DNA from: an uncultured Candidatus Rokubacteria bacterium
GTDB taxonomy: Bacteria; Methylomirabilota; Methylomirabilia; Rokubacteriales; CSP1-6
Reading direction: 5' to 3'
NCBI GenBank assembly: GCA_963747235.1
Contig: CAVVEU010000039.1
Span: forward strand, 1 to 64,000
DNA: 64,000 nt
Position numbers and translations under genes: made by a program. Below are positions 2,072 to 58,384 of the stretch, in pieces (position 1 is the first letter of the stretch; every line of letters starts with the position of its first letter). The notes below the pieces were generated by a model. That model was not told where the DNA came from, did no database searches, and saw nothing but the letters and a program-made list of their open reading frames with translations.

Positions 2072-4702
2072 GTGAGCGACACGTCCACGGCGGCCGCTGC
2101 CGAGGCGGGGCTCACGACGGTCGAGGCCCAGCGCCGCCTGAGCCAGCTCGGCCCCAATCGCGTGGCCGACCGGGGCGAGGTGCCGCTGTGGCAGCTGGCC
2201 CTCGCCCAGTTCCGGAGCCTCGTGGTCTTGCTGCTGCTCGCCGCCTCCGGCATCGCGTGGGCGCTGGGCGAGCGGGCCGAGGCCGTGGCGATCCTCGGCG
2301 CGCTCGTGCTGAACGCGGCCATCGGCTTCGGCTCCGAGTGGCGCGCCCGGGTGTCGCTGGCCAGGCTGCGCGCGCTCGCGGTGCCGCAGGCGCTGGTCCG
2401 GCGCGACGGGTACGTGACCCAGATCGCTACCGCGGAGCTCGTACCGGGGGACGTGCTCGTCCTGGACGCGGGGGCGGCGGTGCCCGCGGACGCGCGGCTG
2501 CTGCGAGCCGCGGCCCTGCAGGTGAACGAATCCACCTTGACCGGCGAGAGCGCGGCGGTCTGGAAGGACGCCGCCGCGACGTCGGGGCCCGACACCCCGC
2601 TGGCCGAGCGCGCGAACATGCTCTACCTCGGCACCACGATCCTCTCCGGGAGCGCGGTGGCTCTCGTCACCGCCACCGGGGCCGCGACGGAGCTCGGCCG
2701 GATCGGACGGCTGGTGGCCTCCGCCGGCTCGCGGACGACGCCGCTCGAGCGCCAGGTGGAGTCACTGGGCCGGCGACTGATCGTGCTGGCGGTCGGCATC
2801 TGCGCGGTGGTGGGTCTCGCCGGCATCCTGCACGGGGAGCCGGTCGGGCTGATGCTGGAGACGGCGGTCAGCCTCGCCGTCGCCGCCGTGCCGGAGGGCC
2901 TGCCGGCGGTGGTCTCGCTCGCGCTGGCCGCCGGGCTCTGGCGGCTCGCGCGCCGCGGCGCGCTCGTCCGGCGCCTGGCCGCGGTGGAGACGCTCGGCTC
3001 GGCCACCGTGATCTGCGCGGACAAGACCGGCACCATGACCGAGAACCAGATGACGGTAACGTCGCTTCGATACGGCGGCCGTCGGGTCACGGTCGGCGGT
3101 GGCGGGCGCTCGACCGCAGGAAGCTTCGTGGACGAAGCCGGCCGCATCGTCACCCCGCTCGCCGATCCGCATCTCACGCTGCTGCTCACCGCGGCGGCGC
3201 TGTGCAACGACGCGAGCCTCCGGCCCGCGCCCGACGGGCTTCATCTCGTTGGCGATCCGACCGAGTCGGCCCTGCTGGTGGCGGCAGTCAAGGCCGGGCT
3301 CGATCCGGCCGACCTGGCACGGGCCTGGCCCCGTCACCGTGAGATCCCGTTCGATCCGGTGACGCGCATGATGGCGACCTTCCACGTCATGCCGGGCGCC
3401 GGGCCCGTGCTCCTGGTCAAGGGCGCCCCCAGCGTGATCGTGGAGCGGGTGACGCGCTCTCACACGGTCGCGGGCCCGGTCGCGCTGAGCGACGAGGATC
3501 GGGTCCGCCTGCTCGAGGAGAACCGGGACCTGGCTCGCGAGGGATTCCGTGTGCTCGCGTTCGCGTGGCGCCCGGTCCCCTCGATCGAGGACGCGCCCGT
3601 GGAGGAGCTCACGTTCCTCGGCCTCGTCGGATTCGTGGATCCGGTGCGTTCGGGGGTGGCGGACGCCATCGCGGCCTGTCGAGAGGCCGGCATCCGCACG
3701 ATCATGCTCACCGGCGACCAGGAGCTCACCGCCCTGACGGTGGGGCGTCAGCTCGGCCTCGAGCCGGAGGCGATCCGGAGCCGGGTCAGTCCGGAGGGCA
3801 AGCTCGAGCTGGTGGCCGAGCTGCAGGCCCGGGGTGAGATCGTGGCCATGACTGGGGACGGGGTCAACGATGCGCCGGCGCTCGTCCGCGCGGATATCGG
3901 CGTGGCGATGGGCCGGCGCGGCACCGACGTGGCACGCGAGTCGGCCGATCTGGTGCTCATCGACGACAACTTCGCGACCATCGTCCTGGCCGTGAAGGAA
4001 GGGCGCGTGATCTACGCCAATCTCCGCAAGGTCATCCGCTTCCTCTTCTCGTGCAACCTCTCCGAGATCCTCACCATCTTCGTGGCCATCCTGCTCGGCT
4101 ATCCCACGCCGCTCCTGCCGCTGCAGATCCTGTGGGTGAACCTGGTCACCGACATCCTGCCCGCGACCGCCCTGATCCGGGATCCGGCCGACGACGACGT
4201 CATGGGACGCCCCCCGCGCGATCCCGCCGAGGCGCTCGTCACCTGGCGGTCAGGCGCGCGCATCCTGGGCGAGGGCGCGCTGCTGGCGGCCGGGGTGCTC
4301 AGCACCTATCTCTGGACCGTGTGGCGGGAGGGCCCCGGCCCGTCGGCCAGCACGATGGCCTTCATGGCGCTGGTTCTGATCCATCCGTTCCAGGCCATGA
4401 GCTGTCGGTCGGAGCGTCTCAACTGGTGGCAACTCAGACCCAATCCATGGATCCCGCTGTCGCTGGTGGCCCTCTTCGCGCTGCAGTGGCTCGCGATTAC
4501 ATGGGGGCCGCTGGCCCGCCTGCTCGGCACGAAGCCCCTGACCGGCGTTGACTGGCTCGTCCTGGCGCTGGGTGTGCTGTGGCCGGTGGCCCTGCTGGAG
4601 GCCCTGAAGGCCTGGGGCCGCTTCACCACATTGAGGCCCGCCTACCCCACCGTGGTGACCCAGGATGAGCCGCAATCCTCGAGATCACCGCGAAAGGATT
4701 GA
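2072..4702 (+). CDS. Cation-transporting P-type ATPase (type IIA, Ca2+/CtpF-like)
   Basis: TGES, VPEGLP, DKTGT, GDPTE, MTGDGVNDAPAL, ILWVNLVTD. Confidence 0.92.
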   Translation: MSDTSTAAAAEAGLTTVEAQRRLSQLGPNRVADRGEVPLWQLALAQFRSLVVLLLLAASGIAWALGERAEAVAILGALVLNAAIGFGSEWRARVSLARLRALAVPQALVRRDGYVTQIATAELVPGDVLVLDAGAAVPADARLLRAAALQVNESTLTGESAAVWKDAAATSGPDTPLAERANMLYLGTTILSGSAVALVTATGAATELGRIGRLVASAGSRTTPLERQVESLGRRLIVLAVGICAVVGLAGILHGEPVGLMLETAVSLAVAAVPEGLPAVVSLALAAGLWRLARRGALVRRLAAVETLGSATVICADKTGTMTENQMTVTSLRYGGRRVTVGGGGRSTAGSFVDEAGRIVTPLADPHLTLLLTAAALCNDASLRPAPDGLHLVGDPTESALLVAAVKAGLDPADLARAWPRHREIPFDPVTRMMATFHVMPGAGPVLLVKGAPSVIVERVTRSHTVAGPVALSDEDRVRLLEENRDLAREGFRVLAFAWRPVPSIEDAPVEELTFLGLVGFVDPVRSGVADAIAACREAGIRTIMLTGDQELTALTVGRQLGLEPEAIRSRVSPEGKLELVAELQARGEIVAMTGDGVNDAPALVRADIGVAMGRRGTDVARESADLVLIDDNFATIVLAVKEGRVIYANLRKVIRFLFSCNLSEILTIFVAILLGYPTPLLPLQILWVNLVTDILPATALIRDPADDDVMGRPPRDPAEALVTWRSGARILGEGALLAAGVLSTYLWTVWREGPGPSASTMAFMALVLIHPFQAMSCRSERLNWWQLRPNPWIPLSLVALFALQWLAITWGPLARLLGTKPLTGVDWLVLALGVLWPVALLEALKAWGRFTTLRPAYPTVVTQDEPQSSRSPRKD

Positions 4703-4728
4703 GCTCGCGCGTTGGCACCCGCGTTGCT
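4613..4728 (+). promoter_or_regulatory. Sigma-54 promoter module P1
   Basis: UAS TGGGGCCGCTTCACCACA 4613-4630 and TGAGGCCCGCCTACCCCA 4632-4649; TGGCAC-CCGCG-TTGCT 4713-4728. Confidence 0.85.
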
Positions 4729-4741
4729 CTGTGAAGGCGAT

Positions 4742-5140
4742 ATGACTACCAACGTGGAACCCATCAAGATCACCGGGCTGGATCGTGATCCGCTGCGCGG
4801 CCGGGCCACGCGGCTCATGACCGAGGCCCTCGCGAAGCTCACCGTCGCGCCGGTCAAGGGACAGGCCTCGTTCTTCGACGACAACGGGCCCAAGGGCGGC
4901 CGGGCCATGCGATGCGCCCTGACGGTGCGGCTGCCGTTCCGGCCGACCATCCGCGTCGAGCGAAGCGCCGTGACGCCCCGCCTCGCCTTCGACGCGGCCT
5001 TCGCCGTGCTCGAGCGCCAGCTCGAGCGGTACCGCGAGCGGGATCGTGACAGCAAGCGGCATCCCAAGAAGTACTTCGCGGCGCGCCGGGTGCTCGCCGG
5101 GGAGGCGCCGGCGCCGCGAAAGCGGGCGCGGCGCGGTTAA
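4742..5140 (+). CDS. HPF/RaiA-family ribosome-associated hibernation protein (divergent)
   Basis: DDNGPKGG..RCALTV..IRVE..PRLAFDAAFAVLERQLERYR resembles the S30AE fold; basic tail. Confidence 0.7.
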   Translation: MTTNVEPIKITGLDRDPLRGRATRLMTEALAKLTVAPVKGQASFFDDNGPKGGRAMRCALTVRLPFRPTIRVERSAVTPRLAFDAAFAVLERQLERYRERDRDSKRHPKKYFAARRVLAGEAPAPRKRARRG

Positions 5141-5153
5141 GCGAGGCCCGTCC

Positions 5154-6281
5154 ATGGATCTGCATGCCCGGCTGACCGCGCTCGGCAAGATTGACCGCGC
5201 CCCGGCCCCGGTGGTGACGGCCTACCTGAATACCCGGTGGGCGGACGAGCACCAGCGCGACCGCGTCCGGATCTTCCTCAAGAATCATCTGGCAGAAGCC
5301 CGGCGCGCCCCTGGCCCGCGCCCGTCCGAGGCCGACTTGGACTGGGTGGAAGCCCAGGGCGAGGCACTCCTCAACCAGGCGATGATGCCCGAGACCAGCG
5401 GGGTCGCCCTCTTCGCCTGCGAGGCGCTCGGGCTCCGCGAGCTCATTTCGAGCCGGGTTCCGTTCGAGAACACGTTCGCGGTGGCCGAGACGCCGCTGCT
5501 GCGTCCGCTGCTGGAGCTCGGCGAGCAGGCACCGTCCACGCTGGTGGTGTTCATCGACACGGAGACAGCGCGGCTCGTCGCGCTCACCTCCGCGGGGGCG
5601 GGAGAGGAGGTCGCGCTCGTGGCCGACGTGCCCGGCCATCACGGTCGGGGCGGCTGGACGCAGATGGCGCAGTCCCGATACCAGCGGCACACCCAGGACC
5701 ATCGGGCCCGGCATTTCGAGGCCGTGGTGGGGAGCCTGATCGGGCTGATGGAAGGCCATGGCTTGCGGTCGATCGTCCTGGCGGGTGAGCCCCGCAACGT
5801 CGCTGTGTTCCGCAAGGAGCTGCCGCCGCGCCTCGCCGCGTTGGTCGTCGGGACCGTGGCCGGCGCCCGGCACGAGGCCATCGGGCTGATAGTCGATCGG
5901 GCCGCCGAGTATCTCCCGCACGTGCAGGGGCAGCGGGAGGCCGAGGGCGTCGACGCCGCGTTGACCGCGGCGGCCAAGCGGGGGAAGGGGAGCGCAGGCC
6001 TCGAGGCCACCCTCAGCGCCGTCAACCGAGGGGCGGTCCACCGGCTCTACCTCCTCAAGGGATGGAGCGCGCCCGGCCGTCGCTGCCGGGGGTGCGGGAC
6101 ACTCGGGGGTGGGCTCACCTGGACCTGCCCGACCTGCGCCGGCGAGGTGCTGATGGTGGAGCTGGGCGAGGCGATGGCCGAGCGCGTCGCCGCCGCCGGC
6201 GGCGCCGTGGAGACCATCGCGGTTCACCAGCCCCTGGCGGTGGCCGGCGGCATCGCGGCCGAGCTGCGCTATCCCCTGTGA
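5154..6281 (+). CDS. Bacterial archaeo-eukaryotic release factor-like protein (baeRF/Balon-like) with C-terminal zinc ribbon
   Basis: VVTAYLN, GVALFAC, PLLRPL, GHHGRGGWTQMAQSRYQRH, IVLAG, CRGCG..CPTC, ending GGIAAELRY. Confidence 0.85.
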   Translation: MDLHARLTALGKIDRAPAPVVTAYLNTRWADEHQRDRVRIFLKNHLAEARRAPGPRPSEADLDWVEAQGEALLNQAMMPETSGVALFACEALGLRELISSRVPFENTFAVAETPLLRPLLELGEQAPSTLVVFIDTETARLVALTSAGAGEEVALVADVPGHHGRGGWTQMAQSRYQRHTQDHRARHFEAVVGSLIGLMEGHGLRSIVLAGEPRNVAVFRKELPPRLAALVVGTVAGARHEAIGLIVDRAAEYLPHVQGQREAEGVDAALTAAAKRGKGSAGLEATLSAVNRGAVHRLYLLKGWSAPGRRCRGCGTLGGGLTWTCPTCAGEVLMVELGEAMAERVAAAGGAVETIAVHQPLAVAGGIAAELRYPL

Positions 6282-7148: not shown

Positions 7149-7256
7149 CGGGGTACGGCTGTCCCACCTGAGGCGAGCGCGCTGTCCCGTCGGAGAGAGC
7201 CGGACCCTCGAATCGGCTTTCTTTTCGGTGGCCTGCGAGAGGGTATGTCGCTTGCA
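7149..7256 (+). promoter_or_regulatory. Sigma-54 promoter module P2 (ybaK-like/groEL operon)
   Basis: UAS CGGGGTACGGCTGTCCCA 7149-7166 plus half-site TGAGGC at 7169; GGGTAT-GTCGC-TTGCA 7241-7256. Confidence 0.65.
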
Positions 7257-7271
7257 AGCACATCGAGCGTC

Positions 7272-7697
7272 ATGCACGAGCGACTGGAAGAGCTCCTCGG
7301 GGTCCGGGGCATCCGCTACAAGCTGGTGCCGCACCTGGAAGCCTTCACCGCGCAGGAAGAAGCGGCCAACGCTCACCGGCTCAAGGGCCTGATCGGCCGC
7401 GGCGAGATCCGTCTGGCCAGCGTCGAGGAGATACTGGCGGGCTTTCCCGGCTGCGCGCTCGGCGCGACCCCGCCGTTCGGCCGGCTCTTCGGGATCCCCA
7501 CCGTGGTGGACGAGTCGCTGGTCGAGCAGCGCGACATCGTCCTGCCGTCGGGGGACCATCGGACCGCGATCCGGATGCGCGCGACGGACTACGTGACGCT
7601 GGCCGAGGCCCGATCGGGCTATTTCGCGTTCCACGAATCGGAGGAGTTTCCGGTGCACCCACATCCCCGCGCCCCGGTGACGCGGCCGAGCCCCTGA
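7272..7697 (+). CDS. YbaK/ProX aminoacyl-tRNA deacylase-like protein, probable internal deletion
   Basis: [39 protein letters not shown]; the central Lys-containing segment appears absent. Confidence 0.7.
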
Positions 7698-7716
7698 TCG
7701 AAGGAGACAAGAGGAC

Positions 7717-9342
<1,626 letters not shown>

Positions 9343-11520: not shown

Positions 11521-11624
11521 TGAGGCTCCCCCGCCCCATTTGCGGCGTGCCCACCCCAGCCCACACCGGAGCAGTGCCGCAAGTTTCCGAAATGGCGTAC
11601 GTCCGGCCTGGCACCGACCTTGTA
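11521..11624 (+). promoter_or_regulatory. Sigma-54 promoter module P3
   Basis: UAS TGAGGCTCCCCCGCCCCA 11521-11538 and TGCGGCGTGCCCACCCCA 11541-11558; IHF-like 11580-11592; TGGCAC-CGACC-TTGTA 11609-11624. Confidence 0.8.
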
Positions 11625-11677
11625 ATGCGGAGGGGCGGGGCACGGATGCAGTGGCCGGTACTCGAAGGGAGGCTGCC

Positions 11678-11885: not shown

Positions 11886-11991
11886 TGGGGCGCGCACGCC
11901 GCAGCGTAGCGGTCCTGTCCCACTCGCGCGACGCGTTCCGCCCGCCAACATCTCGAATCCTCTGCGATATCCGCTTGGCACCTCGCTTGCT
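11886..11991 (+). promoter_or_regulatory. Sigma-54 promoter module P4
   Basis: UAS TGGGGCGCGCACGCCGCA 11886-11903 and CGTAGCGGTCCTGTCCCA 11905-11922; IHF-like 11946-11958; TGGCAC-CTCGC-TTGCT 11976-11991. Confidence 0.85.
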
Positions 11992-12041
11992 CACCAGATC
12001 AACGTCGAGATCCAGGCGATGAAGACCGCGACAGGAGGACG

Positions 12042-13191: not shown

Positions 13192-14214
13192 GCGGCTGGG
13201 AGCCGATCCGGAAGTCGGCGGAGGATGGATCTGTCGCCCCGAATCTCGCGGACTACGCGCGGGGCCGCGCCGAGTTCTCGTGGCAAGGCGCGCGCGGCCC
13301 TCGACGGGCTGTCGGACGGGCGAGGGCTGAACATCGCCCATGAGGCGGTCGACCGTCACGTGGCTCCCGGCCACGGCGAGCACGTGGCGCTGCGGTGGCT
13401 CGGCAAGCGGGGCCAGGCCGTCGACTTCACCTACGCCAGCCTCGCCGAGCTGACGAGCCGCTTCGCCAATGTCCTGCGCTCGCTCGGCGTGGGCCCGGGC
13501 GAGCGGGTCTACGCCCTGGCCGGACGCATTCCCGAGCTCTACGTCGCCGCGCTCGGCACGCTCAAGAGCCGCGGCGTGTTCTGCCCGATGTTCTCCGCGT
13601 TCGGCCCCGAGCCGATTCGCGTCGGCATGGCGACCGGCCACGCTCGCGTGCTCGTCACCACGGAGTCCCTGTACCGGCGGAAGATCGCCGGGATCCGGGC
13701 GGCGCTCCCGGATCTCCGGCACGTGCTGCTGGTCGGTGACGACCGCGGGCCCACCGGCGTTCCGGGAACGCTGGACTATGCCACCCTGATGGCGCGCGCC
13801 GACGGACGGTTCGACATCGAGCGGACGGACCCGGAGGAGATGGCCCTGCTGCATTTCACCAGCGGCACCACCGGCCGGCCCAAGGGCGCGGTGCACGTGC
13901 ACGAGGCCGTCGTCGCGCACCACATCACGGGGCGGCTCGCGCTCGATCTCCATCCGGAGGACGTCTTCTGGTGCACCGCGGATCCGGGCTGGGTCACCGG
14001 GACGTCCTACGGGATCATCGCGCCGCTGACCTGCGGGATCACCCACCGCCAAGCCAAGCGGCTCGGGGTCAAGCGGCTCGTGTTCGCGCATCTCGGCCGG
14101 CCCCCCCTCCGGGCGTTGTCCCGCGGAAAGAAGCCCCCGTTCGGGGAACTGGCGGCCGATGGGCAGACGTTCGGGGTTGTGCGGCGGCCTCGGCTGCCCG
14201 GGCGGTCCCGGTAG
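13188..14214 (+). pseudogene. acsA: Truncated acetate--CoA ligase (AcsA) fused to the C-terminus of an MBL-fold hydrolase
   Basis: [39 protein letters not shown], then an abrupt switch to [16 protein letters not shown]; frameshift near 13290. Confidence 0.8.
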
Positions 14215-14274: not shown

Positions 14275-14417
14275 TCCGGCCGGCGTGCCCCACGTGTGGC
14301 GCGCACGCCTCATCTCTACCAGAGCCCCCCCCGGCTCGCCGGCGCCCGACAACTCGCAGCAACCCAAGCGTTATCACACCATGGCCAGAGAGAAGTCGAG
14401 CTGGCACGGACGATGCT
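14275..14417 (+). promoter_or_regulatory. Sigma-54 promoter module P5
   Basis: UAS TCCGGCCGGCGTGCCCCA 14275-14292 and TGTGGCGCGCACGCCTCA 14295-14312; TGGCAC-GGACG-ATGCT 14402-14417. Confidence 0.75.
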
Positions 14418-14620
14418 CTGGTGATTCCGAGAGACCTGGACGGCCATGCCCTGGGAGCGGTTCGAGATCGTGCTGCCGAACTGAGGGAGGAGTTCGATCA
14501 CAGTGAAAGGAGGCATGAAGAGCCCCGCAAATGTTCCACCTCACGTCTAGCCAAGGCTGATGTAGCTCGTGGGCCGCGGTGCGATGAGCGCGACCCCCGA
14601 GAAGGGGAAGGAGACCAGTC

Positions 14621-16447: not shown

Positions 16448-16966
16448 CTACCACCTCACGTCCCGGATCCCGAGCCAGTAGGCGAGGTGGTTCACGAGAA
16501 TGTGTCCGATCACGCTGAGCGCGAGGATGGTCGCCAGATCGACCCATGACAGCGCCGCCGCACCCCAGACGAGCGCGAGCGCGCCCAGCACGAAGTCGAT
16601 CTGGTCCCAGGGGATCCAGGGCCGGCCCGGGGCGATTCCGGCGCGGCGCTTGACGAAGCTCTTCGCGGTGTCGCCGGCCATGGCGCCCACGCCAAAGCGG
16701 AGCCCGAGCGTCAGCCAGGCTTCGGGAGCGGCGAGCGCGCCCTCCCAGGCGATGCGGGACTGGACGAACGTCGCCGCCACCGCCGCGAGGACGCCGATGG
16801 CGAACCCCCCGGCGGTCTTGTGGGAGCCGAGCCACCGTTGGCTGAGCGGCGGGTTCCACCCGCTCCAGTCCCGGACGAACGGGGGGGCCATGTTGGCGGC
16901 GTAGGCCGGTGCCATGAAGTAGAGGAGCTGGACCACGCGGAAGAGAATCGGAGCGAGGGTGATCAT
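16448..16966 (-). CDS. CDP-archaeol synthase-like (CarS/DUF46) membrane cytidylyltransferase
   Basis: PAYAANMAP, LGSHKT..G, GAMAGD..KSFVKRR.GI.PG..PWDQIDF. Confidence 0.85.
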   Translation of the reverse strand: MITLAPILFRVVQLLYFMAPAYAANMAPPFVRDWSGWNPPLSQRWLGSHKTAGGFAIGVLAAVAATFVQSRIAWEGALAAPEAWLTLGLRFGVGAMAGDTAKSFVKRRAGIAPGRPWIPWDQIDFVLGALALVWGAAALSWVDLATILALSVIGHILVNHLAYWLGIRDVRW

Positions 16967-19733: not shown

Positions 19734-19849
19734 CGGGACTCCGCCGCCTCATCCGGGGAGCCGTCGCCTCACTCGCCCACGCCCGGCGAGGCTCAGTCCG
19801 GATGATGAGGGCGGGAATCCTCGGCCGACCGCGTGGCACCGCCTTTGCT
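19734..19849 (+). promoter_or_regulatory. Sigma-54 promoter module P6
   Basis: UAS CGGGACTCCGCCGCCTCA 19734-19751 and CGGGGAGCCGTCGCCTCA 19754-19771; TGGCAC-CGCCT-TTGCT 19834-19849. Confidence 0.88.
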
Positions 19850-19879
19850 CCAGCTTCGCGTGGAGCCCAGGAGGCCGCC

Positions 19880-21874: not shown

Positions 21875-21989
21875 CGGGGACGCCGCGCCCCGCTGGGGTG
21901 GCGTCGCCCCATCGAACCGGGTGCCCCCGCGGTGTAACCTGTCGGGATCCTGGGGTTCTGATGGTGCGGCTCGTGGCAGCAGAGTTGCA
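21875..21989 (+). promoter_or_regulatory. Sigma-54 promoter module P7 (IHF/HU operon)
   Basis: UAS CGGGGACGCCGCGCCCCG 21875-21892 and TGGGGTGGCGTCGCCCCA 21894-21911; TGGCAG-CAGAG-TTGCA 21974-21989. Confidence 0.88.
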
Positions 21990-22010
21990 AAGTCCTCTCG
22001 CGGGAGACCG

Positions 22011-22319
22011 ATGGCCATGAACAAGAGCGACCTGGTTCTCGAAGTGGCCCGGGCCGCGGGTCTCACCCGCGAGCTGAGCGAAGCGGTCGTGACCGCGGTA
22101 TTCGAGCGGATCACGGAGGCGCTGGTGAGGGCGGAGCGCGTGGAGCTGCGCGGTCTGGGCACGTTCGAGGTGAGGCAGCGAGCCGCGCACGCCGGCCGGA
22201 ACCCGAAGACCGGTGCCCCGGTCCAGGTCCCGACCCGGAAGGTCCCGTTCTTCCGGACCGGGAAGGAGCTGCGGGCGATCCTGAATCCGCAGGCGGCGCC
22301 CGAGAAGGTCCACGCATGA
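22011..22319 (+). CDS. HU/IHF-family DNA-bending protein (IHF-beta-like)
   Basis: MNKSDLV..VELRGLGTF..GRNPKTG..VPFFRTGKELR. Confidence 0.93.
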   Translation: MAMNKSDLVLEVARAAGLTRELSEAVVTAVFERITEALVRAERVELRGLGTFEVRQRAAHAGRNPKTGAPVQVPTRKVPFFRTGKELRAILNPQAAPEKVHA

Positions 22320-22758: not shown

Positions 22759-24091
22759 ATGCCCACGCGGATCGTGATCCTGGGCGCGGCCGGCCGCGAC
22801 TTCCACAACTTCAACGTGGTCTACCGCAACGACCCGGACGTCCACGTGGTGGCGTTCACCCAGGCCCAGATCCCGCGCCTGAGCGACCGCCGCTATCCCG
22901 CCTCGCTCGCCGGGGCGTGCTATCCGGCGGGGATTCCGATCGAGGACGAGGCCGACCTGGAAGCGATCTGCCGGCGCGAGGCGGTGGATCGCGTCGTGTT
23001 CGCGTACAGCGACGTCCCGCACGCGGCCGTGATGCACCTGGCCTCGCGGGCCCTCGCGGCGGGCGCGGACTTCACCCTGCTCGGCCCCCGGAGCACGATG
23101 CTCCGGGCGCGCGTGCCGGTGATCGCCATCTCGGCCCTCCGGACCGGGTGCGGCAAGTCCCAGACCGCGCGCTGGCTCGGAAGGCGGCTCCGCGAGCGCG
23201 GGCACAAGGTCGCGGTGCTGCGGCACCCGATGCCGTACGGCGACCTCGAGCGGCAGCGGGTGCAGCGGTTCACGCGGCGCGAGGATCTCGATGCGGCGGG
23301 ATGCACCGCCGAGGAGCGCGAAGAGTACGAGCCGCACCTGGCCGCCGGCCACGTCGTCTTCGCGGGAGTGGACTACGCGGCGATCGTGGAGCGGGCCGAG
23401 CGCGAGGCGGACCTCATCGTGTGGGACGGGGGCAACAACGATTTCCCGCTGCTGCGGCCGGATCTGCACATCGTCATGGCCGACGCGCTCCGGCCCGGGC
23501 AGGCCGACGGCTACCACCCGGGAGAAGCGGTGCTGCGCATGGCGGACGTCGTCGTCATCAACAAGGTGGACGCGGCTTCGGCCGGCAACGTGCGGGCGGT
23601 CACCGACGAGGTGCGCGCGATCAACCTGCGGGCCACGATCGTGCTCGCGGCATCTCCGGTCCGGCTGGACGACCCCGCCGCGGTGCGGGGGCGGCGTGTC
23701 CTGGTGGTGGAGGACGGCCCGACCCTCACGCACGGCGGCATGGCGTACGGCGCGGGCTACGTCGCGGCCACCGCGGGCGGCGCGGCGGCCATCGTGGATC
23801 CGCGCGCCTCCGCCGCGCTCGGCGTGCGGGAGATCTTTGCCCGCTACCCGCACATCGGACCCGTGCTCCCGGCGGTCGGCTACGACGCGGGCCAGCTCCA
23901 GGAGCTCCGCGAGACGATCAATCGATCCGTCGCGGACGTGGTGGTGGCGGCGACCCCGCTCGATCTGGGCGCGCTGATCAGCGCTCGAGAAGCCGGTGGT
24001 GCGCGCGCGCTACGAGTTCGAGGACGCCGGGGAGCCCACCCTGGGGTCGCTCGTGGATACGTTCCTCGAGCGAGGCGCCGCAATCCAATGA
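22759..24091 (+). CDS. COG2403 P-loop protein (cyclic 2,3-diphosphoglycerate synthetase/arginine synthetase-like); one frameshift near 23985
   Basis: ILGAAGRDFHNFN, RTGCGKSQT, RHPMPYGDL, EEREEYEPH, WDGGNND, EDGPTLTHGGM; true C-terminus KPVVRARYE is in another frame, ending TGA 24091. Confidence 0.85.
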
Positions 24092-25797
24092 GAGGCGCGG
24101 CCCCGTGGATCTCCGGATGGCTTTCCCGCCGCCACGTGATGGTCGCGGCCACTGCGGCGATCCTCGCCTTCTTGATGGCCGGGACGGCGGTCGAGCCGGC
24201 GCCTGGGTCCACCAGGTACCGCATCCAGGAGCTCATGGAGCGGCTGGACGGGCTCCGCATCGACGGCTGGCCGCTCGACCCCGAGCCGCTGGTGCGATTC
24301 TACCGACCGCGAGACTTTGCCCCGGCCTGGGACCCGCGCGACGGCGGGCGGGATCGCGCGGAATCGCTTCTCCGGGTGCTGATGGCGGCCGATCAGCACG
24401 GGCTCGACCCCGGGCGCTACCATCTCGACACGATCCGGGCGCGCCTATCGAGGTCGAATGGGCATACCGGTGAGCTCGATCTGCTGCTGACCGCCGCGTT
24501 CCTCGGCTACGCGCGCGACGTCCGGACCGGCCGGCTGCCGCCCGGGCGCCGGGACGGAGACTGGGGAATCTCGGTGGCCCCGTTCGACGCGGCCGCGGTT
24601 CTGGCTCAGGGCGTCCGCGAGGTGGCGGTGTTCCGTGCCGGGCTGGCGTCCCTGCCGCCGCCCGCGGAGGACTACGCGCGCCTCGTCGAGGCGCTGCGGC
24701 GCTATCGGGAGACGGCGGCCCGCGGTGACTGGCTGCTCGTCCCGCCGGGCGCGCCGCTCAGGATCGGAGACGACGACGCCCGCGTCGCCGCCGTCCGGGC
24801 TCGCCTCGCGGCCGAGGACGCGCAGGTGTTGCGAGTCGCCACCCACTTTGATGAGCGGCTCGATGAGGCCGTGCGCCGCTTTCAGGCGCGTCACGGGCTC
24901 GACGCGGACGGGATCGTGGGTGAGGCGACCGTCCGCGCCTTGAACGTGCCAGCCGCCGACCGGATGCAGCAGATCGCCCTGAACCTCGAGCGGTGGCGCT
25001 GGCTCCCGCGCGATCTCGGCCCGCGCTACGTCACCGTGAATGCGGCCGATGCCACGCTGCGGGTGGTGGACGGCGGCCGGATCGTGCTGACCTCCCGGGT
25101 CGTCGTCGGCGATCTCCAGCATCCGACGCCGGTGGTGCAGGCCCGTCTCGACGCGGTGGTTCTGAATCCGAGGTGGAACCTGCCGACCTCGATCGCGGCG
25201 CGGGAGATCCTGCCGCGGCTTCGCGAGAACCGCCGCTACCTGGCCGAGCACGACATCGTCATCATGGAGCGGCGGGAGAGCGACCCGTTCGGCCTGGCGG
25301 TCGACTGGTCCACGATCTCCGCGGAGGCGTTTCCGTTCCGGCTGCAGCAGCAGCCGGGCCCGGACAATCCCCTGGGCCGGATCAAATTCGACGTCCCGAA
25401 TCGCTTCGACGTCTACCTGCACGACACCCCGATGCGGGGGCTGTTCGCGCGGCCGCGGCGGACGGCCAGCCACGGGTGCATCCGGGTGGAGCGGGCCGAC
25501 GAGCTCGCGGCCCACGTCCTGGCGGACGGGACCGGGCGGTGGACGCCCCAGCGCCTGGAGGAGGCGATCGCGGGGGGTGGCTCACCGCGGATTCCGGTTG
25601 CCCGGCCGCTGCCCGTGTACATACTGTACTGGACGGCGTTCGTCGGCCCGGACGGCGTCGCGCAGTTCCGGGACGACGTCTACGGGCGCGACCGTCGCCT
25701 CGCCGCCGCGCTGGCGGCGGAGCGGCGCGCGGCCGGGGCGGACCTGGCTCGCGCGATCGGCGGCTGCCCGTCGTCTCGAGAGGAGGCACCCGGATGA
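24088..25797 (+). CDS. L,D-transpeptidase, YcbB/LdtD-like
   Basis: PG-binding FQARHGL.DG.VG, NLERWRWLP, PGPDNPLG.IKF, YLHDTP, SHGCIRV. Confidence 0.92.
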   Translation: MRGAAPWISGWLSRRHVMVAATAAILAFLMAGTAVEPAPGSTRYRIQELMERLDGLRIDGWPLDPEPLVRFYRPRDFAPAWDPRDGGRDRAESLLRVLMAADQHGLDPGRYHLDTIRARLSRSNGHTGELDLLLTAAFLGYARDVRTGRLPPGRRDGDWGISVAPFDAAAVLAQGVREVAVFRAGLASLPPPAEDYARLVEALRRYRETAARGDWLLVPPGAPLRIGDDDARVAAVRARLAAEDAQVLRVATHFDERLDEAVRRFQARHGLDADGIVGEATVRALNVPAADRMQQIALNLERWRWLPRDLGPRYVTVNAADATLRVVDGGRIVLTSRVVVGDLQHPTPVVQARLDAVVLNPRWNLPTSIAAREILPRLRENRRYLAEHDIVIMERRESDPFGLAVDWSTISAEAFPFRLQQQPGPDNPLGRIKFDVPNRFDVYLHDTPMRGLFARPRRTASHGCIRVERADELAAHVLADGTGRWTPQRLEEAIAGGGSPRIPVARPLPVYILYWTAFVGPDGVAQFRDDVYGRDRRLAAALAAERRAAGADLARAIGGCPSSREEAPG

Positions 25798-26363: not shown

Positions 26364-26477
26364 TGGGGCCCGAGCGCCTCAGCTGAGGAGCGAGAGACCC
26401 ATACGAGACGTGCGGGGAGTCCTAACCCACCGGTTCTCAACGCGGCGCGGCCACCGGCACCTGGCAGGCCGGTTGCA
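26364..26477 (+). promoter_or_regulatory. Sigma-54 promoter module P8
   Basis: UAS TGGGGCCCGAGCGCCTCA 26364-26381 and TGAGGAGCGAGAGACCCA 26384-26401; TGGCAG-GCCGG-TTGCA 26462-26477. Confidence 0.88.
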
Positions 26478-26530
26478 CTCCACCGGATCGACGGGCTTGG
26501 AGGAATCCGAGCGCCGCCGGAGGAGGATCG

Positions 26531-27462: not shown

Positions 27463-27567
27463 TGGGGCGGGCCGGCCACACCGGGGCCATCGCGCCTCGA
27501 CCATCCCTTGTGTGACGACCGCAAGGCGCTGAATCAGCGCGCGTTCCCGCCTGGCACCCGCGATGCA
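27463..27567 (+). promoter_or_regulatory. Sigma-54 promoter module P9 (hsp20 operon)
   Basis: UAS TGGGGCGGGCCGGCCACA 27463-27480 and CGGGGCCATCGCGCCTCG 27482-27499; IHF-like 27522-27534; TGGCAC-CCGCG-ATGCA 27552-27567. Confidence 0.85.
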
Positions 27568-27621
27568 GTCAGTGTCGTCGGGTATCGAACGAAGCGCTCG
27601 GACAAATGAGGAGGAGACATC

Positions 27622-34893: not shown

Positions 34894-34906
34894 GACGATC
34901 GGGAAG

Positions 34907-34923
34907 TGCAAGGGGGGTGCCGG
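34907..34923 (-). promoter_or_regulatory. Sigma-54 -24/-12 box for pal-gdh (divergent from P10)
   Basis: Minus strand CGGCAC-CCCCC-TTGCA, ending 13 nt before the pal ATG. Confidence 0.75.
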
Positions 34924-34995: not shown

Positions 34996-35080
34996 TGGGG
35001 CGCCGGTGTCCCGCGTCACGACAGCCGGGGCGGCGATTCTCACCATCTTGCGTCGTTTGGGCGCTGGCACCCGGCTTGCT
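34996..35080 (+). promoter_or_regulatory. Sigma-54 promoter module P10
   Basis: Single clear UAS TGGGGCGCCGGTGTCCCG 34996-35013; TGGCAC-CCGGC-TTGCT 35065-35080. Confidence 0.85.
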
Positions 35081-35093
35081 CTCAGCGCCTGAC

Positions 35094-41461: not shown

Positions 41462-41546
41462 TGGGGCGCGACGGCCCCACCCACCTTCCCGGGGGCCGCG
41501 ATAAGTGGTTGATTTTGGCTGTGCTTCGGCTGGCACTCCCGTTGCA
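41462..41546 (+). promoter_or_regulatory. Sigma-54 promoter module P11
   Basis: UAS TGGGGCGCGACGGCCCCA 41462-41479; exact IHF consensus (minus strand AATCAACCACTTA) 41502-41514; TGGCAC-TCCCG-TTGCA 41531-41546. Confidence 0.92.
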
Positions 41547-41595
41547 GTTCCTCCTCGCTGATTGCCGTCACTTCACGACCGAAGAGGAGGACGCC

Positions 41596-46819: not shown

Positions 46820-47248
46820 ATGGGGCGCTACACGTTTCTCGAGGACGTGGCCCTGGCCGACTGCGCCGTCGAGATCGAGGGGCGGAGCCTCGACGATCTC
46901 TTCGAGACGGCCGCGGCCGCGATCGCGCGCCTCATGGTGGACCCGGCCACGCTGACGATCACGGTCGAGCGCGCGATCACCCTGGAGGCCTCCGAGCTCG
47001 ACATGCTGCTCTACGACTGGCTGTCCGAGATGATCTTTCTCAAGGACCGGGACAGCCAGGTCTTCCCGCACGCCCGGGTGCGGGTGACCGGGGACGGTCC
47101 CTACCGGCTTGCCGCCGACGTCCACGGCGGTACCATCGATCCCGGGCGCACCGCGCTGGGCGCCGATCCGAAGGCGGTCACGCTGCACCAGTTCGCGCTC
47201 GAGCCGGTGGACGGCGGCTGGCGCGCCCGGGTCGTCATCGACATCTAG
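46820..47248 (+). CDS. Archease
   Basis: ALAD..G..LF..A, LLYDWLSE, KAVTLH, ending VIDI. Confidence 0.93.
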   Translation: MGRYTFLEDVALADCAVEIEGRSLDDLFETAAAAIARLMVDPATLTITVERAITLEASELDMLLYDWLSEMIFLKDRDSQVFPHARVRVTGDGPYRLAADVHGGTIDPGRTALGADPKAVTLHQFALEPVDGGWRARVVIDI

Positions 47249-47255
47249 GGAGAGC

Positions 47256-48725
47256 ATGACGATCACCGAGTCGCTGCGCGGGGCGGTTCGACGAGTCGAC
47301 GACTGCATCTGGGAGATCCCGCCGACCGCGAAGCCCGGCATGCTCGTCCCGGCGCGCCTGTACGCCTCCGGGCCGCTGCTCGAGCAGATGGACGACGGCG
47401 TGTTCGAGCAGGTGACCAACGTGGCCTGCCTGCCCGGCATCGTCCGCGCGTCGCTCTGCATGCCGGACGGGCACTGGGGGTACGGCTTCCCGATCGGCGG
47501 CGTCGCCGCCTTTCGCGCCGACTCGGGCGTGATCTCGCCGGGCGGCATCGGCTTCGACATCAACTGCGGGATGCGGCTCATCCGCACGGACCTCAGGGAA
47601 GACGAGGTGCGGCCCCGTCTGCCGGAGCTGATCGGGGCGCTGTTCGGCTCGGTGCCGGCGGGGGTCGGCGCGAAGGGCTTCGTGCGCCTCTCCGGCTCCG
47701 AGTTCAAGAAGGTCATGGTGGAAGGGGCCGGCTGGTGCGTGGCCCGTGGCTACGCGTGGCCCGAGGACCTGGCGCACATCGAGGGCCGCGGCTGCCTGCC
47801 CGGCGCCGATCCCGAGGCGGTGAGCGCCAGAGCCCTGGAGCGAGGGATGGAGCAGCTCGGGACGCTGGGCTCCGGCAACCACTACCTGGAGATCCAGGTG
47901 GTGCGACCGGGCGCCATCCACGACGAGCGCGTGGCGCGCGTGCTCGGCGTGGACGGCCCCGGCCAGGTCTTCGTCATGCTCCACTGCGGCTCGCGCGGGT
48001 TCGGGCATCAGGTCGGCACCGACTACCTCAAGATCTTCGACCGGGCGATGCCGCAGTACGGCATCAGCGTGCGGGATCGCGAGCTGGCGTGCGCGCCCTT
48101 CCGGTCGAAGGAGGGCCAGGCCTACTTCGGCGCCATGACCGCCGCGGCCAACACCGCGTTCGCCAATCGCCAGGTGATCACCCACCGGATCCGGGAGGTG
48201 TTCTCCAAGGTCTTCGGGCGCGACGCGCGCGCGCTGGGGCTCAGCGTGGTCTACGACGTCTGCCACAACACCGCCAAGCTCGAGCGCCACAAGGTGGACG
48301 GCCGGGAGATGGAGCTGGTCGTGCACCGCAAGGGCGCCACGCGCGCCTTCGGCCCGGGCGCGCCCGACGTGCCCGCCGACTACCGGGAGATCGGCCAGCC
48401 GGTGATCATCGGCGGCTCGATGGAGACGGGGTCCGCGCTCCTGGTCGGGACGACGCAGGCCATGGCCGAGACCTGGGGGTCGACGGCTCACGGCGCCGGC
48501 CGCACCATGTCGCGGGCGCAGGCCAAGCGGCAGGTCGGGGGGGAGACCCTGATCCAGGACATGGCGGAGCGCGGGATCATCGTGCGGGCGGCGTCCAAGT
48601 CCGGGGTGGCCGAGGAAGCCGGGTTTGCCTACAAGGACCTCACCGCGGTGGTGGACACGCTCCACCGGCTCGACATCTCGCGACGGGTCGTCTCGCTCAC
48701 GCCGATCGGGAATATCAAGGGCTGA
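47256..48725 (+). CDS. rtcB: RtcB RNA ligase (archaeal/eukaryote-like long form)
   Basis: MPDGHWGYGFPIGG, GFDINCG, LGSGNHY, HCGSRG, HNTAK, HRKGAT, GGSM, HGAGR. Confidence 0.97.
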   Translation: MTITESLRGAVRRVDDCIWEIPPTAKPGMLVPARLYASGPLLEQMDDGVFEQVTNVACLPGIVRASLCMPDGHWGYGFPIGGVAAFRADSGVISPGGIGFDINCGMRLIRTDLREDEVRPRLPELIGALFGSVPAGVGAKGFVRLSGSEFKKVMVEGAGWCVARGYAWPEDLAHIEGRGCLPGADPEAVSARALERGMEQLGTLGSGNHYLEIQVVRPGAIHDERVARVLGVDGPGQVFVMLHCGSRGFGHQVGTDYLKIFDRAMPQYGISVRDRELACAPFRSKEGQAYFGAMTAAANTAFANRQVITHRIREVFSKVFGRDARALGLSVVYDVCHNTAKLERHKVDGREMELVVHRKGATRAFGPGAPDVPADYREIGQPVIIGGSMETGSALLVGTTQAMAETWGSTAHGAGRTMSRAQAKRQVGGETLIQDMAERGIIVRAASKSGVAEEAGFAYKDLTAVVDTLHRLDISRRVVSLTPIGNIKG

Positions 48726-48733: not shown

Positions 48734-48848
48734 CGAGGCGCGCGCGCCCCAACCGGGAGCGGCTGCCCCAGCCAGTCCGACGCGCGCCCGGCCAACCCTG
48801 CGTTTTTGCTCGCGCACACAGGCAGAGCCCCGTGGCACTTGCCTTGCA
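48734..48848 (+). promoter_or_regulatory. Sigma-54 promoter module P12
   Basis: UAS CGAGGCGCGCGCGCCCCA 48734-48751 and CCGGGAGCGGCTGCCCCA 48753-48770; TGGCAC-TTGCC-TTGCA 48833-48848. Confidence 0.9.
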
Positions 48849-48890
48849 ATTTCCTGCGTCCGACGGTGCCCGATCGAAAAGGAGAGCATC

Positions 48891-54628: not shown

Positions 54629-56074
54629 ATGGCGGAGCCGGCGACGAATCAGCCGCAGTCCGCGTTTTCGGTGTTCGAGGAGGCGTTCGCCCGTGCCGCG
54701 GGGACGCCGCTCGTCACCGGCAACGAGGTGCGGCTGCTCCGGGACGCGGGCGAGAACTATCCGGCCTGGCTCGACGCCATCGCGGCGGCCCGCCGCACGA
54801 TCCACTTCGAGAGCTACATCATCCACGACGACGAGACCGGGGAGCAGTTCGCCCGCGCGTTGAAGGCGAAGGCCGCCGAGGGCGTGCGGGTGCGCCTCAT
54901 CTACGATTGGCTCGGCGCGGTGGCCAAGACGTCCCGGAGATTCTGGCGTGATCTGCGCGAGGCCGGGATCGAGGTCCGCTGCTTCAATCCGCCCGGCCTG
55001 TCGAGCCCGTTCGCCTGGATCTCCCGCGACCACCGGAAGATGCTGGCGGTGGACGGGCACGTCGCCTTCGTCACCGGGCTCTGCGTGGGGCGCGCCTGGG
55101 TCGGCGATCCGGCCCGCGGCGTCGAGCCCTGGCGCGACACCGGCATCGCGGTCCGTGGCCCCGCGGTCGCGGATCTGGAATCGGCGTTCGCCCGGATGTG
55201 GGCGCTGGCCGGCTCTCCGATCGCGGATGCGGAGCTGCCAACGCGCGAGTCGCTGGCCCCGGCGGGGGACGTCGCGGTGCGCGTCATCGCGGGCATGCCC
55301 GGAACCGCGGAGCTCTATCGGCTGGATCAGCTCATCGCGGCCGCGGCGCGCGAAACCCTCTGGCTCACCGACGCCTACTTCGTCGGCACGACCGCCTACG
55401 TGCAGTCGCTCCGCGCGGCGGCGCGTGACGGCGTGGACGTGCGCCTGCTGGTGCCCGGCGCGAGCGACATCTGGGTCCTGCGCGGCCTCTCGCGGGCGGG
55501 GTATCGCCCGCTCCTCGAGGGCGGCGTGCGCGTCTACGAGTGGAACGGTCCGATGCTCCACGCCAAGACCGCGGTCGCGGACGGGCGATGGGCCCGCGTG
55601 GGCTCGACGAATCTCAATCTCCAGTCGTGGATCGGCAACTGGGAGCTGGACGTGGCGGTGGAGGACGAGGGCTTCGCCGCGCCGGATGGAGGACATGTAC
55701 CTCGACGATCTCGGCCGCGCGACCGAGATCACGCTCACGCGCTGGCGCGCGCGTCGTGCGCACCGCGAAGCCGCCCGGGCTTCCCAGGCGGCGGCCGGGC
55801 AGCGCGGGGCGGGCCGCGGCGGGCGCGGTGAGCATCGGCAGCGCGGTGGGGGCCGCCATGACGGGCCGCCGCGTGCTGGGCCCGGCCGAGGCCCGGATCA
55901 TGGGCGGCGGCGGGGGTGGCGCTCCTGGCGCTGGGGCTGGTGGCGCTGCTCTGGCCCCGGGTGATCGCGGTGCCGCTTGCGGCGCTCGCGATCTGGCTGG
56001 CGGTGAGCCTGCTGTTCCGCGCCAGGGCCCTGCGACGCGAGCGGAGCGAGGAGCCGCGGGACACCGAGGGCTGA
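54629..56074 (+). CDS. Cardiolipin synthase-like phospholipase D with C-terminal TM helices (frameshifts after 55680)
   Basis: Two HKD motifs [10 protein letters not shown] and [10 protein letters not shown]; WRDT; VGSTNL. Confidence 0.88.
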
Positions 56075-56082
56075 GCCGCGAG

Positions 56083-58237
56083 ATCAGCCCCCCGGGGCTG
56101 TCGACCGGGAAGGTCAGCGTGAACGTGCTGCCCTTGCCGACCTCGGAGCGGACGTCCAGCGTCCCGTGGTGATCGTGCACGATGCCGTGGCTGATCGACA
56201 GACCGAGCCCGGTCCCTTCCGGCTTCGTGGTGAAGAACGGATCGAAGATCTTCGGCAGGAGGCTCGGCGGGAATCCCGGAGCCGGTATCGCGCACCGCGA
56301 GGCGCACCGAGCGGGCGGCGGCCAGATGGCTGGTCTCGATCGTGATCTCGCCGCCCTCGGGCATGGAGCCCCGGGCGTTGGTGAGCAGGTTGAGCAGCAC
56401 CTGCCCGATCGCGTTGGCGTCGGCCACGATGGTGGGCATCGTCTCGTCCAGCTTCGTCGTGACCTGGACCCGCGCCCGGCTCATGTCCTTGCGGACGAGC
56501 TGGACGATCTCCTCCGTGACCTGGTTCAGGTTCACGGGGCCGCGGGTGCCGGACGACTGGCGGGCGAAGGACAGGAGCCCCTGGGTGATCGTGGCCACCC
56601 GCCGGGCGTGGCGCAGGATGACCTCGAGGTCCTTCCGCACCTCGTCGGGGAGCCCCACTTCGTCGGCCTCGAGCATCATGACCTCGACACGCGAGGTGAT
56701 GATGCCGATGGGATTGTTGATCTCGTGGGCGATGCCGGCCGACAGGGTGCCCAGCGCGGCCAGCTTGTCGGCCTGGCGGGCGGCCTTCTGGAACGCCACC
56801 CGCTCGCTGATGTCGGTGACGAAGGCGATGGCGCGCACGCCCTCGTCGGTCTCGACGTAGCTCAGGCTCACCTCCACCGGGAACTCGGTTCCGTCCTTCT
56901 TGAGCGCGGCCAGGTCGAGCCCCCGGCCCATCGAGCGGATCCGCGGCGCCGCCATGTAGGTGCCGCGATGGGCGACGTGCCGCTCGCGGAGCGGGGCCGG
57001 GATGAGGGCCTCGACCGGCTGCCCGATCAGCTCGGCCTGCGTGTAGCCGAACATCGCCTCGGCCCTGGCGTTGACCAGCACGATGCGGCCCGCCGCATCG
57101 GTGACCACGATGCTCTCGGTCACGGAGGCGAGGAGCGCCCGGGACGTGGCCTCGCTGCGGCGCAGCGACTCCTCGGCCACCCGGCGCGCGGAGACGTCGC
57201 GCGCCACGATGGACGCGCCCACCGACCTGGTCGGCGTCGTCGCGGATCGGCGAGATCGTCATGAACACGTGGATCCGCCGCCCCGACCCCGTCATCTGCT
57301 CGGCTTCGATCCGCTCGACCCGCTGCTCCCGCAGGACGCGGGTCAGGCTGGCCGCGACCTCGTCGTTGTGCCGGTCCGGCCCCAGGATGTCGATCGGCAG
57401 GCCGGTGACCTCCTCTCCCCGATGCTCGTAGAGCCGCTCCGCGCCCGCATTCCAGGTGAGCACGCGTCCGTCGGGCCCCAGCCCGATGATCGCGTCGTCG
57501 GACGACTGGACGATCGACGTGAGCAGCGCGCTCGTCTGCTCGTACTCGACCACCTGGCTCCGCAGCGCGTCCCGGGTCGCCCGGATCTCGCCCGCGCGCC
57601 GTCGATACTCGACGAGGACGACCACGAGCAGGCCGAGCGTCACCGCGGCCAGCCCGGCCAGCCCGAGGAACACGCGGTGAGCCTGCCGCGCATACCGGGT
57701 CGATTGCTCGGCCTGGATCTGGCGCTCCTCCGCCTTCATGGTGGCGACGGCGGAGCGAATCTGCTCCATGAGCCGCAGGCCGCGTCCGGTCAGCAGGCGC
57801 TGGACCGCGACGTCGGTACGCCGCTCGCGGCCGAGCTGGACCGTGTCGCGCAGCTCGCCGAGCTTGTCCGTGACGAGCGGCTCCAGGGTGTCGACGTGCC
57901 GCCGCTGGCGCACATTCCCCTCGGTCAAGCCGCGGAGGGTCCGCAGGTGGCTCGCCGCGGAGTCGAACGCGGTGAGATACGGCGCGAGATAGCGCTCGTC
58001 GCCGGTCATCAGGAAGCCGCGCTGTCCGGTCTCGGCATCGGTCACCGCCGAGAGGACTCCATCCAGCTCACCGAGGACCTGGCCGGTCTGACGGGCCGTC
58101 TGGTACTGTTCGGTGAGATCGCGCGCGCCGAGCGCGATGACCGCAATGGCCAGCACGAGGGCGGCGGCCACGGAGAACGCAACGCTCGTGCGGTTGTGGA
58201 GAAGCCAGGGGAGCACGCCGCTGGGCGGTTGAGCCAT
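56083..58237 (-). CDS. Sensor histidine kinase CHASE3-PAS-PAS-HisKA-HATPase, NtrB/AtoS-type (frameshifts near 57225 and 56265)
   Basis: [66 protein letters not shown]. Confidence 0.9.
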
Positions 58238-58279
58238 GCCGGCTGCATTGTCGGCCAGGAGCGCGGTGCCTTCAAGGTC

Positions 58280-58384
58280 TGGGGCGGCGGCGCCTCAGCG
58301 GGGCACGGCTGCCGCGCGAGGCGGCCGGGTCCAGTGCTGTAACGGGTTGAATGTATGGCAATTCTAGCTGGCACCTCGGTTGCA
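58280..58384 (+). promoter_or_regulatory. Sigma-54 promoter module P13
   Basis: UAS TGGGGCGGCGGCGCCTCA 58280-58297 and CGGGGCACGGCTGCCGCG 58299-58316; IHF-like (minus ATTCAACCCGTTA) 58340-58352; TGGCAC-CTCGG-TTGCA 58369-58384. Confidence 0.92.

Follow-up and report, generated by a model that had tools for sequence, protein, structure and literature searches.

In this study, we analysed a window of 64,000 nucleotides from an uncultured Candidatus Rokubacteria bacterium (contig C39, positions 1-64000, of genome G000) and identified a gene cluster whose promoters combine a -24/-12 box of the sigma-54 type with an upstream 18-bp palindromic dyad. We propose that these promoters form a two-component, sigma-54-dependent low-oxygen or dormancy regulon, a reading of sequence features to which we assign a probability of about 0.6. 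A sensor kinase encoded in the window would pass its signal to an NtrC-type bacterial enhancer-binding protein (bEBP) encoded across a contig break, on C31, and this activator would act at the dyads. Comparisons were made with a relatives' set of 150 genomes and a further phylum-wide set of 201; the relatives are not independent of one another and many of their promoters are orthologous, thus the P values are overstated.

Sigma-54 promoters with a phased dyad

A first-pass annotation of this DNA had claimed 13 plus-strand boxes, each just upstream of an operon start and preceded by a shared palindrome. All 13 boxes lie where they had been placed, and the box pattern used there matches exactly 13 times on the plus strand of the window and never on the minus strand, compared with 0.78 matches per 64 kb elsewhere in the genome. 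Their position ahead of operons holds for 12 of the 13, which lie 29-70 bp from a called start, but not for the box at 14402, which stands 219 bp ahead of a BON gene with only tiny open reading frames (ORFs) in the gap. A 14th promoter, absent from that annotation, was found on the minus strand (box 34922) and uses the dyad at 34996 jointly with the plus-strand box at 35065. Near-matches of the kind described there, at 2139, 15928, 55133 and 57367, were dismissed as chance; all four are within genes, and none is accompanied by a scored box. The idea was to be abandoned if the genome lacked rpoN, and rpoN is present (PF04552 at C8:726117). That these promoters are real is close to certain. The promoters and the regulatory genes of the window are as follows.

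4613..4729, plus strand: dyads 4613 and 4632 and box 4713, before HPF/S30AE (4742-5140) and, beside it, baeRF10 (5154-6281), assigned by Pfam families
7149..7257, plus strand: dyad 7149, weak dyad 7169 and atypical box 7241, before a YbaK-like gene, groEL and CBS
11521..11625, plus strand: tandem dyad, IHF-like element and box 11609, before DUF5670
11886..11992, plus strand: tandem dyad, IHF-like element and box 11976, before small membrane proteins, a PNPOx-like protein and an AMP-binding enzyme
14275..14418, plus strand: tandem dyad and box 14402, before a triple-BON protein and universal stress proteins (USPs)
19734..19850, plus strand: tandem dyad and box 19834, before CBS and an M50-CBS protease
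21875..21990, plus strand: tandem dyad and box 21974, before an IHF/HU-family gene (22011-22319) and CBS
26364..26478, plus strand: tandem dyad and box 26462, before CBS and USP
27463..27568, plus strand: tandem dyad, IHF-like element and box 27552, before Hsp20, PCMT, a MacAB-like transporter and PEP synthase
34906..34922, minus strand: sigma-54 box using dyad 34996, before OmpA-like and Glu/Leu dehydrogenase genes
34996..35081, plus strand: single dyad 34996 and box 35065, before a HAD hydrolase and a P-type ATPase
41462..41547, plus strand: single dyad, element matching the IHF consensus at 9/9 and box 41531, before YgaP-like, HlyD/AcrB, archease and RtcB
48734..48849, plus strand: tandem dyad and box 48833, before a small secreted protein, CBS, DksA/TraR, USP, PFK and ADH
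58280..58385, plus strand: tandem dyad, IHF-like element and box 58369, divergent from the kinase, before USP, CBS, acyl-CoA ligase, USPs and CoxIIa-COX2-COX1
2..870, plus strand: 3' half of the APS-kinase-like gene whose other half is at the end of C31, and a stand-alone receiver protein
56088..58237, minus strand: CHASE3-PAS-PAS(haem-type)-HisKA-HATPase sensor kinase in three frames; 56088 is the end of the aligned part
Outside the window, on four other contigs of G000: tandem-site promoters C31:144746, C42:13913, C28:71060, C28:74211 and C24:727209

All 24 dyad positions claimed are present in the window and every box has its 18-bp dyad, but the consensus first suggested, TGRGGC-N6-GCCYCA, is matched exactly at only 4 of the 24; a looser one, YGDGGC-N6-GCCHCR, was obtained from 129 distinct sites. 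The dyad at 7169 is weak (3.5 bits), and those at 4613 and 4632 fall within the 3' end of a P-type ATPase gene. Scored with a leave-one-promoter-out matrix, the best upstream site beats 20000 random genome windows at 13/13 promoters (P <= 0.006). Genome-wide, 22/240 sigma-54-like boxes have a dyad 66-135 bp upstream, against 3/240 in a downstream control; 14 of these 22 are in the window, five are the tandem-site promoters elsewhere, and three are weak and probably due to chance.

The spacing is also regular. Tandem copies start 19-21 bp apart, leaving 1-3 bp between them, and in 12/13 promoters of the window the proximal dyad starts 68-72 or 78-81 bp ahead of the box. In the relatives' loci, where a dyad is present at 81/112 boxes, the commonest distances from site to box are 70-71 and 89-91 bp, lesser clusters occur around 80 and 100 bp, and the period is about 10 bp (R = 0.59, n = 116 sites). 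From these features we predict that the dyad is very probably bound by a bEBP.

A third promoter element, likewise absent from the first-pass annotation, lies about 30 bp ahead of the box and resembles the IHF consensus of E. coli. At a fixed offset, at least 6 of 9 positions match in 5/13 window promoters and in 48/81 promoters of relatives, compared with 7/49 other boxes of G000 and 283/20000 random positions. The IHF/HU-family gene is itself under a motif promoter (box 21974).

An NtrC-type activator flanked by the same sites

The first-pass annotation had advised looking for NtrC-family genes in the flanks, and one was found about 3 kb upstream of the window across the contig break, at C31:143248-144649. 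The coding sequence of one APS-kinase-like protein is split in two between the end of C31 and the start of C39, and in genome G052 (locus L128) the same genes stand unbroken in the same order, thus we take the cluster to begin on C31; no exact overlap between the two contig ends was found. The product has the architecture REC-AAA+(GAFTGA)-HTH_8, with one frameshift in G000 and an open frame in G098 and others. Tandem sites flank its gene, 90 bp before the start and 7 bp after the stop. Among the matches listed, the closest named orthologue is from Ca. Rokubacteria (76%), and the named top matches are mostly from Rokubacteria, NC10 or Methylomirabilota.

Orthologues were detected in 78/150 relatives by the REC-AAA part and in 86/150 by the HTH, with a union of 87. 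Counting a dyad plus a sigma-54 box pattern as one unit, at least three units occur in 71/87 genomes with the orthologue versus 9/63 without it, and in 41/51 versus 6/37 when only genomes at least 90% complete are considered; a reversed-pattern control reaches three units in 10/150 genomes. Within genera, 15/16 contrasts between motif and orthologue run in the same direction. Of 30 orthologue loci, a tandem site is present at 23, a strong single site at six and neither at one, and a box is also present at 23/30, compared with 1/79 non-orthologous bEBP loci that has a weak site and box, in genomes that differ in GC content. The recognition helix is near-invariant among orthologues, and the HTH is present in 110/201 genomes of the phylum. 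In a quick tree of 97 rows, to which every second of the 79 distant bEBP loci was offered, the 21 tested orthologues form one clade (SH-aLRT, not bootstrap, support of 100). Taken together, it is quite likely that the activator from C31:143248-144649 acts at the dyad, where its binding is predicted.

Beside the activator gene in other orders, the site takes a variant form, TGGGRC-N6-GTCTCA, and is 116-134 bp ahead of the box. The strict unit pattern finds 0-1 units in three genomes of family f7 although f7 and f8 carry the orthologue and such variant sites, and we therefore regard this pattern as tuned to Rokubacteriales.

Several features of the activator loci are recorded here in their own right. 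The tandem site before the activator (L002:5068-5200, about C31:143067-143195) also faces a divergent sigma-54-like box, which would drive a small gene and an SNF transporter inserted at the position of the relatives' kinase; autoregulation through this tandem site is possible. In family f4 (L124:8833-10398, L130, L131), a fusion of APH-like and AAA_33 parts directly precedes the activator; in other families the APH and APS-kinase-like genes are separate and lie downstream. A second copy of the activator HTH, with a stop codon, lies beside nirK in L122 (about 700-850; G141:C9:490691-490840).

Sensor kinase, signal and rival readings

Kinases adjoining activator orthologues match the minus strand of the window from 58237 to about 56088, in three frames, with CHASE3, PAS, PAS, HisKA and HATPase domains in a gene divergent from the 58369 promoter. 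Of the 41 H-boxes found in G000, only that of this kinase shows the signature common to bEBP-adjacent kinases. Conserved adjacency and the shared signature suggest that the two proteins are partners, and the window kinase probably phosphorylates the activator.

All 16/16 PDB matches of its PAS-B domain are PAS sensors, with FixL, 10JX (FG214) and DosP at the top. FG214 is described as a redox-switched protein that binds haem with His156 as proximal ligand, His159 needed for loading, His175 distal and Met172 a possible alternative (bioRxiv 10.64898/2026.03.15.711900). The equivalents of His156 and Met172 are kept in 29/29 aligned kinases, a second His is visible in 29/29, and the proximal His sits in the PAS domain directly before the kinase core. 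Of the 31 relatives with a haem-PAS kinase, at least 10 (G016, G020, G052, G058, G062, G068, G102, G122, G129 and G142) have it directly beside the activator. The 28 longer loci comprise eight with an adjacent kinase that has no haem signature, six with an adjacent haem-type kinase, three with a haem-type kinase further off and 11 in which none was seen; G060 carries both kinase types. We favour, with moderate confidence, O2 or a related gas as the signal, perceived through a predicted haem.

A number of observations weigh against the low-oxygen regulon. The position of the FixL distal Arg (R220 of BjFixL) is Leu in 28/29 kinases and Phe in one, and the distal His175 of FG214 is not kept. The haem-PAS kinase (E <= 1e-70) was found in only 31/150 relatives versus 87 with the bEBP, and across the 30 loci the adjacent kinase is a membrane-PAS type without haem signature in 11, of haem type in three and absent in 16. 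No orthologue was detected in the motif-rich genomes G035, G063, G106 and G139 (78-91% complete); G148, the remaining one of the five negative-scored genomes richest in the motif, has a split one. With the strict pattern, 8/87 genomes that have the orthologue show no more than one unit. Finally, activator (one frameshift) and kinase (two) are both frameshifted in the G000 assembly.

With the same activator, site and promoters, the signal may instead be NO or CO, haem or redox status, or the membrane energy state sensed through the transmembrane (TM) PAS kinase or CHASE3, in which case the cluster would encode a general programme for energy stress or stationary phase. Such an account draws on the 11/14 bEBP-adjacent kinases of the 30 loci without haem signature, the missing FixL Arg, the redox switching of FG214, which is the closest solved PAS by motif, and the presence of NrfA, a NirK-like protein and a formate/nitrite transporter among the targets. 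It sits less well with the recurrence of haem-type kinases beside or near the activator in three families of two orders and with the match of the targets to hypoxia-induced lxa/DosR sets, and we consider it a minority prospect, though one to be taken seriously.

It is improbable that a different bEBP or transcription factor binds the dyad, with the C31 activator only its neighbour or target. G000 has about 20 bEBPs, the four motif-rich genomes lack a detected orthologue, and the activator gene itself adjoins motif sites; on the other side stand the co-occurrence of orthologue and motif, the motif at the 3' end of the activator gene across the class, and the closest G000 paralogue, whose HTH is only 40% identical to that of the activator. 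The chance that the system is real in relatives and dead in the source strain, through its frameshifted activator and kinase, is smaller still: the frameshift rate is 4.6 per 10 kb within the cluster (12/55 genes) and 3.5 per 10 kb elsewhere (9/41 genes), the extra base at 57225 is missing from related strains' contigs in 2/4 sequencing runs, every site is intact, and the frameshifts are probably assembly noise. The reading of the palindromes as RNA hairpins, terminators or REP-like repeats merely sitting in intergenic DNA, which several sites close behind stop codons (27463, 48734, C31:144656) and the ease with which GC-rich DNA forms dyads might suggest, was dropped as scarcely credible, since the arms vary independently over the 129 sites (61 pairs at positions 3/16 versus 67.6 when shuffled), a TTTT run follows 0/24 sites, and the sites are phased to the box, some of them in divergent gaps or within a coding region, so that the dyad is better seen as a protein site than as an RNA stem.

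The earlier proposal that one bEBP controls the whole island through the palindrome thus gains support from the phasing, the lack of arm covariation, the motif-flanked bEBP, the co-occurrence and the near-absence of the motif at 79 other bEBPs. Its scope needs adjusting in two directions, being slightly too strong, as several minus-strand genes have no motif promoter, and too narrow, as promoters lie on four more contigs.

Target genes, proposed circuit and known systems

The GC content of the window is 0.71, the same as in the rest of the genome, thus we speak of a gene cluster; a horizontally acquired island is unsupported by composition. The window encodes 8 USPs and 8 CBS-domain proteins, together with Hsp20, GroEL, PCMT, a triple-BON protein, HPF with baeRF10, archease with RtcB, DksA/TraR, two P-type ATPases, PEP synthase, PFK, ADH and acyl-CoA ligase. 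Downstream of 58369 follow CoxIIa-COX2-COX1 (a ba3-type oxidase) and then NrfH/NrfA-like and Rieske/cytochrome b genes, presumably co-transcribed from this promoter. Outside the window, the motif precedes genes for NirK-like, PAS-LuxR and haem-binding EB_dh proteins, and a further site adjoins a divergently oriented CRP gene. In the relatives, 31 of the 81 motif promoters lead to a USP and four directly to COX2. Judged by the families assigned from sequence, the targets presumably serve survival.

Some of the neighbouring genes are unusual in themselves. At 7272-9342, the YbaK-like gene is followed by groEL with no groES called beside it. A CarS-like gene (CDP-archaeol synthase family, PF01864) lies among the USPs at 16448-16966 on the minus strand and also occurs in the G052 cluster (L128). 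On the plus strand, a fragment of the archaeal-type AdoMet synthetase family PF01941 (6403-6783) looks frameshifted, the G052 version having 399 aa, and the AMP-binding enzyme at 13225-14214 is truncated or frameshifted (329 aa versus 566 aa in G109). The 1012-aa ORF at 22759-25797 (plus strand) joins a P-loop N-terminal half to an L,D-transpeptidase and may be an assembly artefact, as its matches in relatives have only 336-530 aa. Archease and RtcB (46820-48725, plus strand) belong to the operon of the 41531 promoter, with no RtcR control seen so far. Near-duplicate strings of multihaem, Rieske and cytochrome b genes stand at the end of C39 (68002-75200) and the start of C42 (818-8011).

Activators of the bEBP type are phosphorylated, oligomerise on tandem sites, reach the polymerase by IHF-assisted looping and open the promoter at the expense of ATP. 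Sequence gives the architecture, families, co-occurrence and synteny of the present system, and it is from this established biology that we borrow the phosphorylation, oligomerisation and looping steps. The window PAS kinase would sense O2 or a related gas or redox change with haem in its second PAS domain and would donate phosphate to the activator, dimers of which would occupy the tandem dyads and then oligomerise. IHF would bend the DNA about 30 bp upstream of the box, the activator would loop to sigma-54 polymerase, and some 20 promoters would open. The putative output comprises USPs, CBS proteins, Hsp20, GroEL, PCMT, BON, HPF with baeRF10 and RtcB/archease, as well as the ba3-type oxidase, NrfHA, NirK-like protein, PFK, ADH and acyl-CoA ligase, and an IHF/HU helper and a second-tier PAS-LuxR regulator.

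A wider reading, more doubtful and offered tentatively, is that of a master hypoxia/dormancy switch for the whole class Methylomirabilia, a counterpart of DosRST built from different parts, in which two interchangeable kinases of the same lineage (haem-PAS and membrane PAS) feed one activator. Its direct targets might include its own IHF/HU helper, ribosome-hibernation factors, alternative respiratory chains and second-tier regulators. If true, few known regulons of a single bEBP would match it in size, and it would be the first to be defined in this phylum.

Rokubacteria are uncultured, and our literature searches found no paper on transcription control in them; here, sensor, activator, site, promoters and targets come from sequence alone as a testable circuit, which suggests how these bacteria survive low oxygen in soil. 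The motif can place unknown genes in the programme across the class, and the compact activator-site pair could serve as an orthogonal sigma-54 switch.

The comparison with known systems draws on the following papers: PMC11841059, bioRxiv 10.64898/2026.03.15.711900, PMC6211767, PMC4641369, PMC3721108, PMC12316311, PMC6615313, PMC7240162 and PMC10901736. The first-pass annotation did not recognise the motif as a described one, and indeed no matching motif or regulon appeared among the literature matches listed; RegPrecise and the logos of PMC4641369 and PMC6615313 lay outside the comparison and could hold a similar one. By the accounts used, the most regulated by one enhancer-binding protein is 12 operons in D. 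vulgaris and 6 in Clostridiales (PMC4641369, PMC6615313), versus about 20 promoters here.

NmpRSTU of Myxococcus xanthus, as described in PMC11841059 and PMC6211767, has much in common with the present system, including an NtrC-like activator, sigma-54 promoters, tandem dyads, proposed O2 sensing by a haem kinase, and USP and CBS targets. It differs, by the same descriptions, in its site (GCGCA-N5-TGCGC, usually 14-15 bp apart, against an 18-bp dyad with 1-3 bp between copies), in its sensor (a protoglobin kinase in a phosphorelay, against a PAS-haem or TM-PAS kinase) and in its size (7 promoters against about 20). In the 160 bp ahead of each of the 13 boxes, no NmpR site was found, with one mismatch allowed. 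No protoglobin kinase was found at the activator locus; the only protoglobin of G000 is in a 224-aa open frame on C27 (L117, C27:8951-9427), away from the cluster. In four myxobacterial genomes, an NmpR-like protein is the best or second-best BLAST match by score, with 47-50% identity to the query; the quick tree, however, puts the four myxobacterial bEBPs with an adjacent protoglobin, which synteny led us to take as NmpR, in another clade, and their recognition helix differs, thus orthology to NmpR was rejected.

DosR is a LuxR/NarL-type regulator that is not known to use sigma-54. In content, DosRST and the lxa locus of Burkholderia cenocepacia resemble the cluster, sharing USPs, alpha-crystallin/Hsp20, PFK, a cation P-type ATPase and CBS proteins (PMC3721108), and likewise HPF with an eRF1-like factor and clustered genes under one shared motif (PMC3721108; PMC10901736). 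The lxa motif, as reported, is FNR/Anr-like, TGA-N6-TCA (PMC3721108), unlike the dyad here. FNR-type boxes occur within 160 bp of 0/13 boxes, and FNR, lxa, NmpR and NtrC consensus sites were all set aside as absent from the window promoters. A Balon-RaiA-Hsp20-RtcB neighbourhood described in PMC10901736 also overlaps the target set. Hibernation factors of the Balon type have an eRF1-like fold, are encoded beside HPF/RaiA and bind the ribosomal A site.

FixL-FixJ(-FixK) and FG214 (bioRxiv 10.64898/2026.03.15.711900) share with the window kinase a proximal-His PAS directly before the kinase core, supply the best PDB matches, and resemble the system in its possible second-tier regulators. Unlike in these, the output here is a sigma-54 bEBP and not FixJ or a same-chain HTH, and the FixL distal Arg and FG214 His175 are not kept. 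NtrX is not known to need sigma-54; by description the activator is set apart from it, with its GAFTGA motif, other targets and -24/-12 boxes at all of them. NtrY/NtrX of Brucella and Rhodobacter is nevertheless similar in joining a haem-PAS redox kinase to an NtrC-family regulator, in the account of PMC7240162. With NtrBC, AtoSC and ZraSR the system shares REC-AAA+-HTH_8, GAFTGA, tandem upstream activating sequences (UAS) and an IHF-like site between UAS and promoter, and its mechanism class is textbook. We conclude that the system is real and well supported, that it works like NmpR yet is not its orthologue, and that a DosR/lxa-type gene set has here been wired to a further, independent type of regulator.

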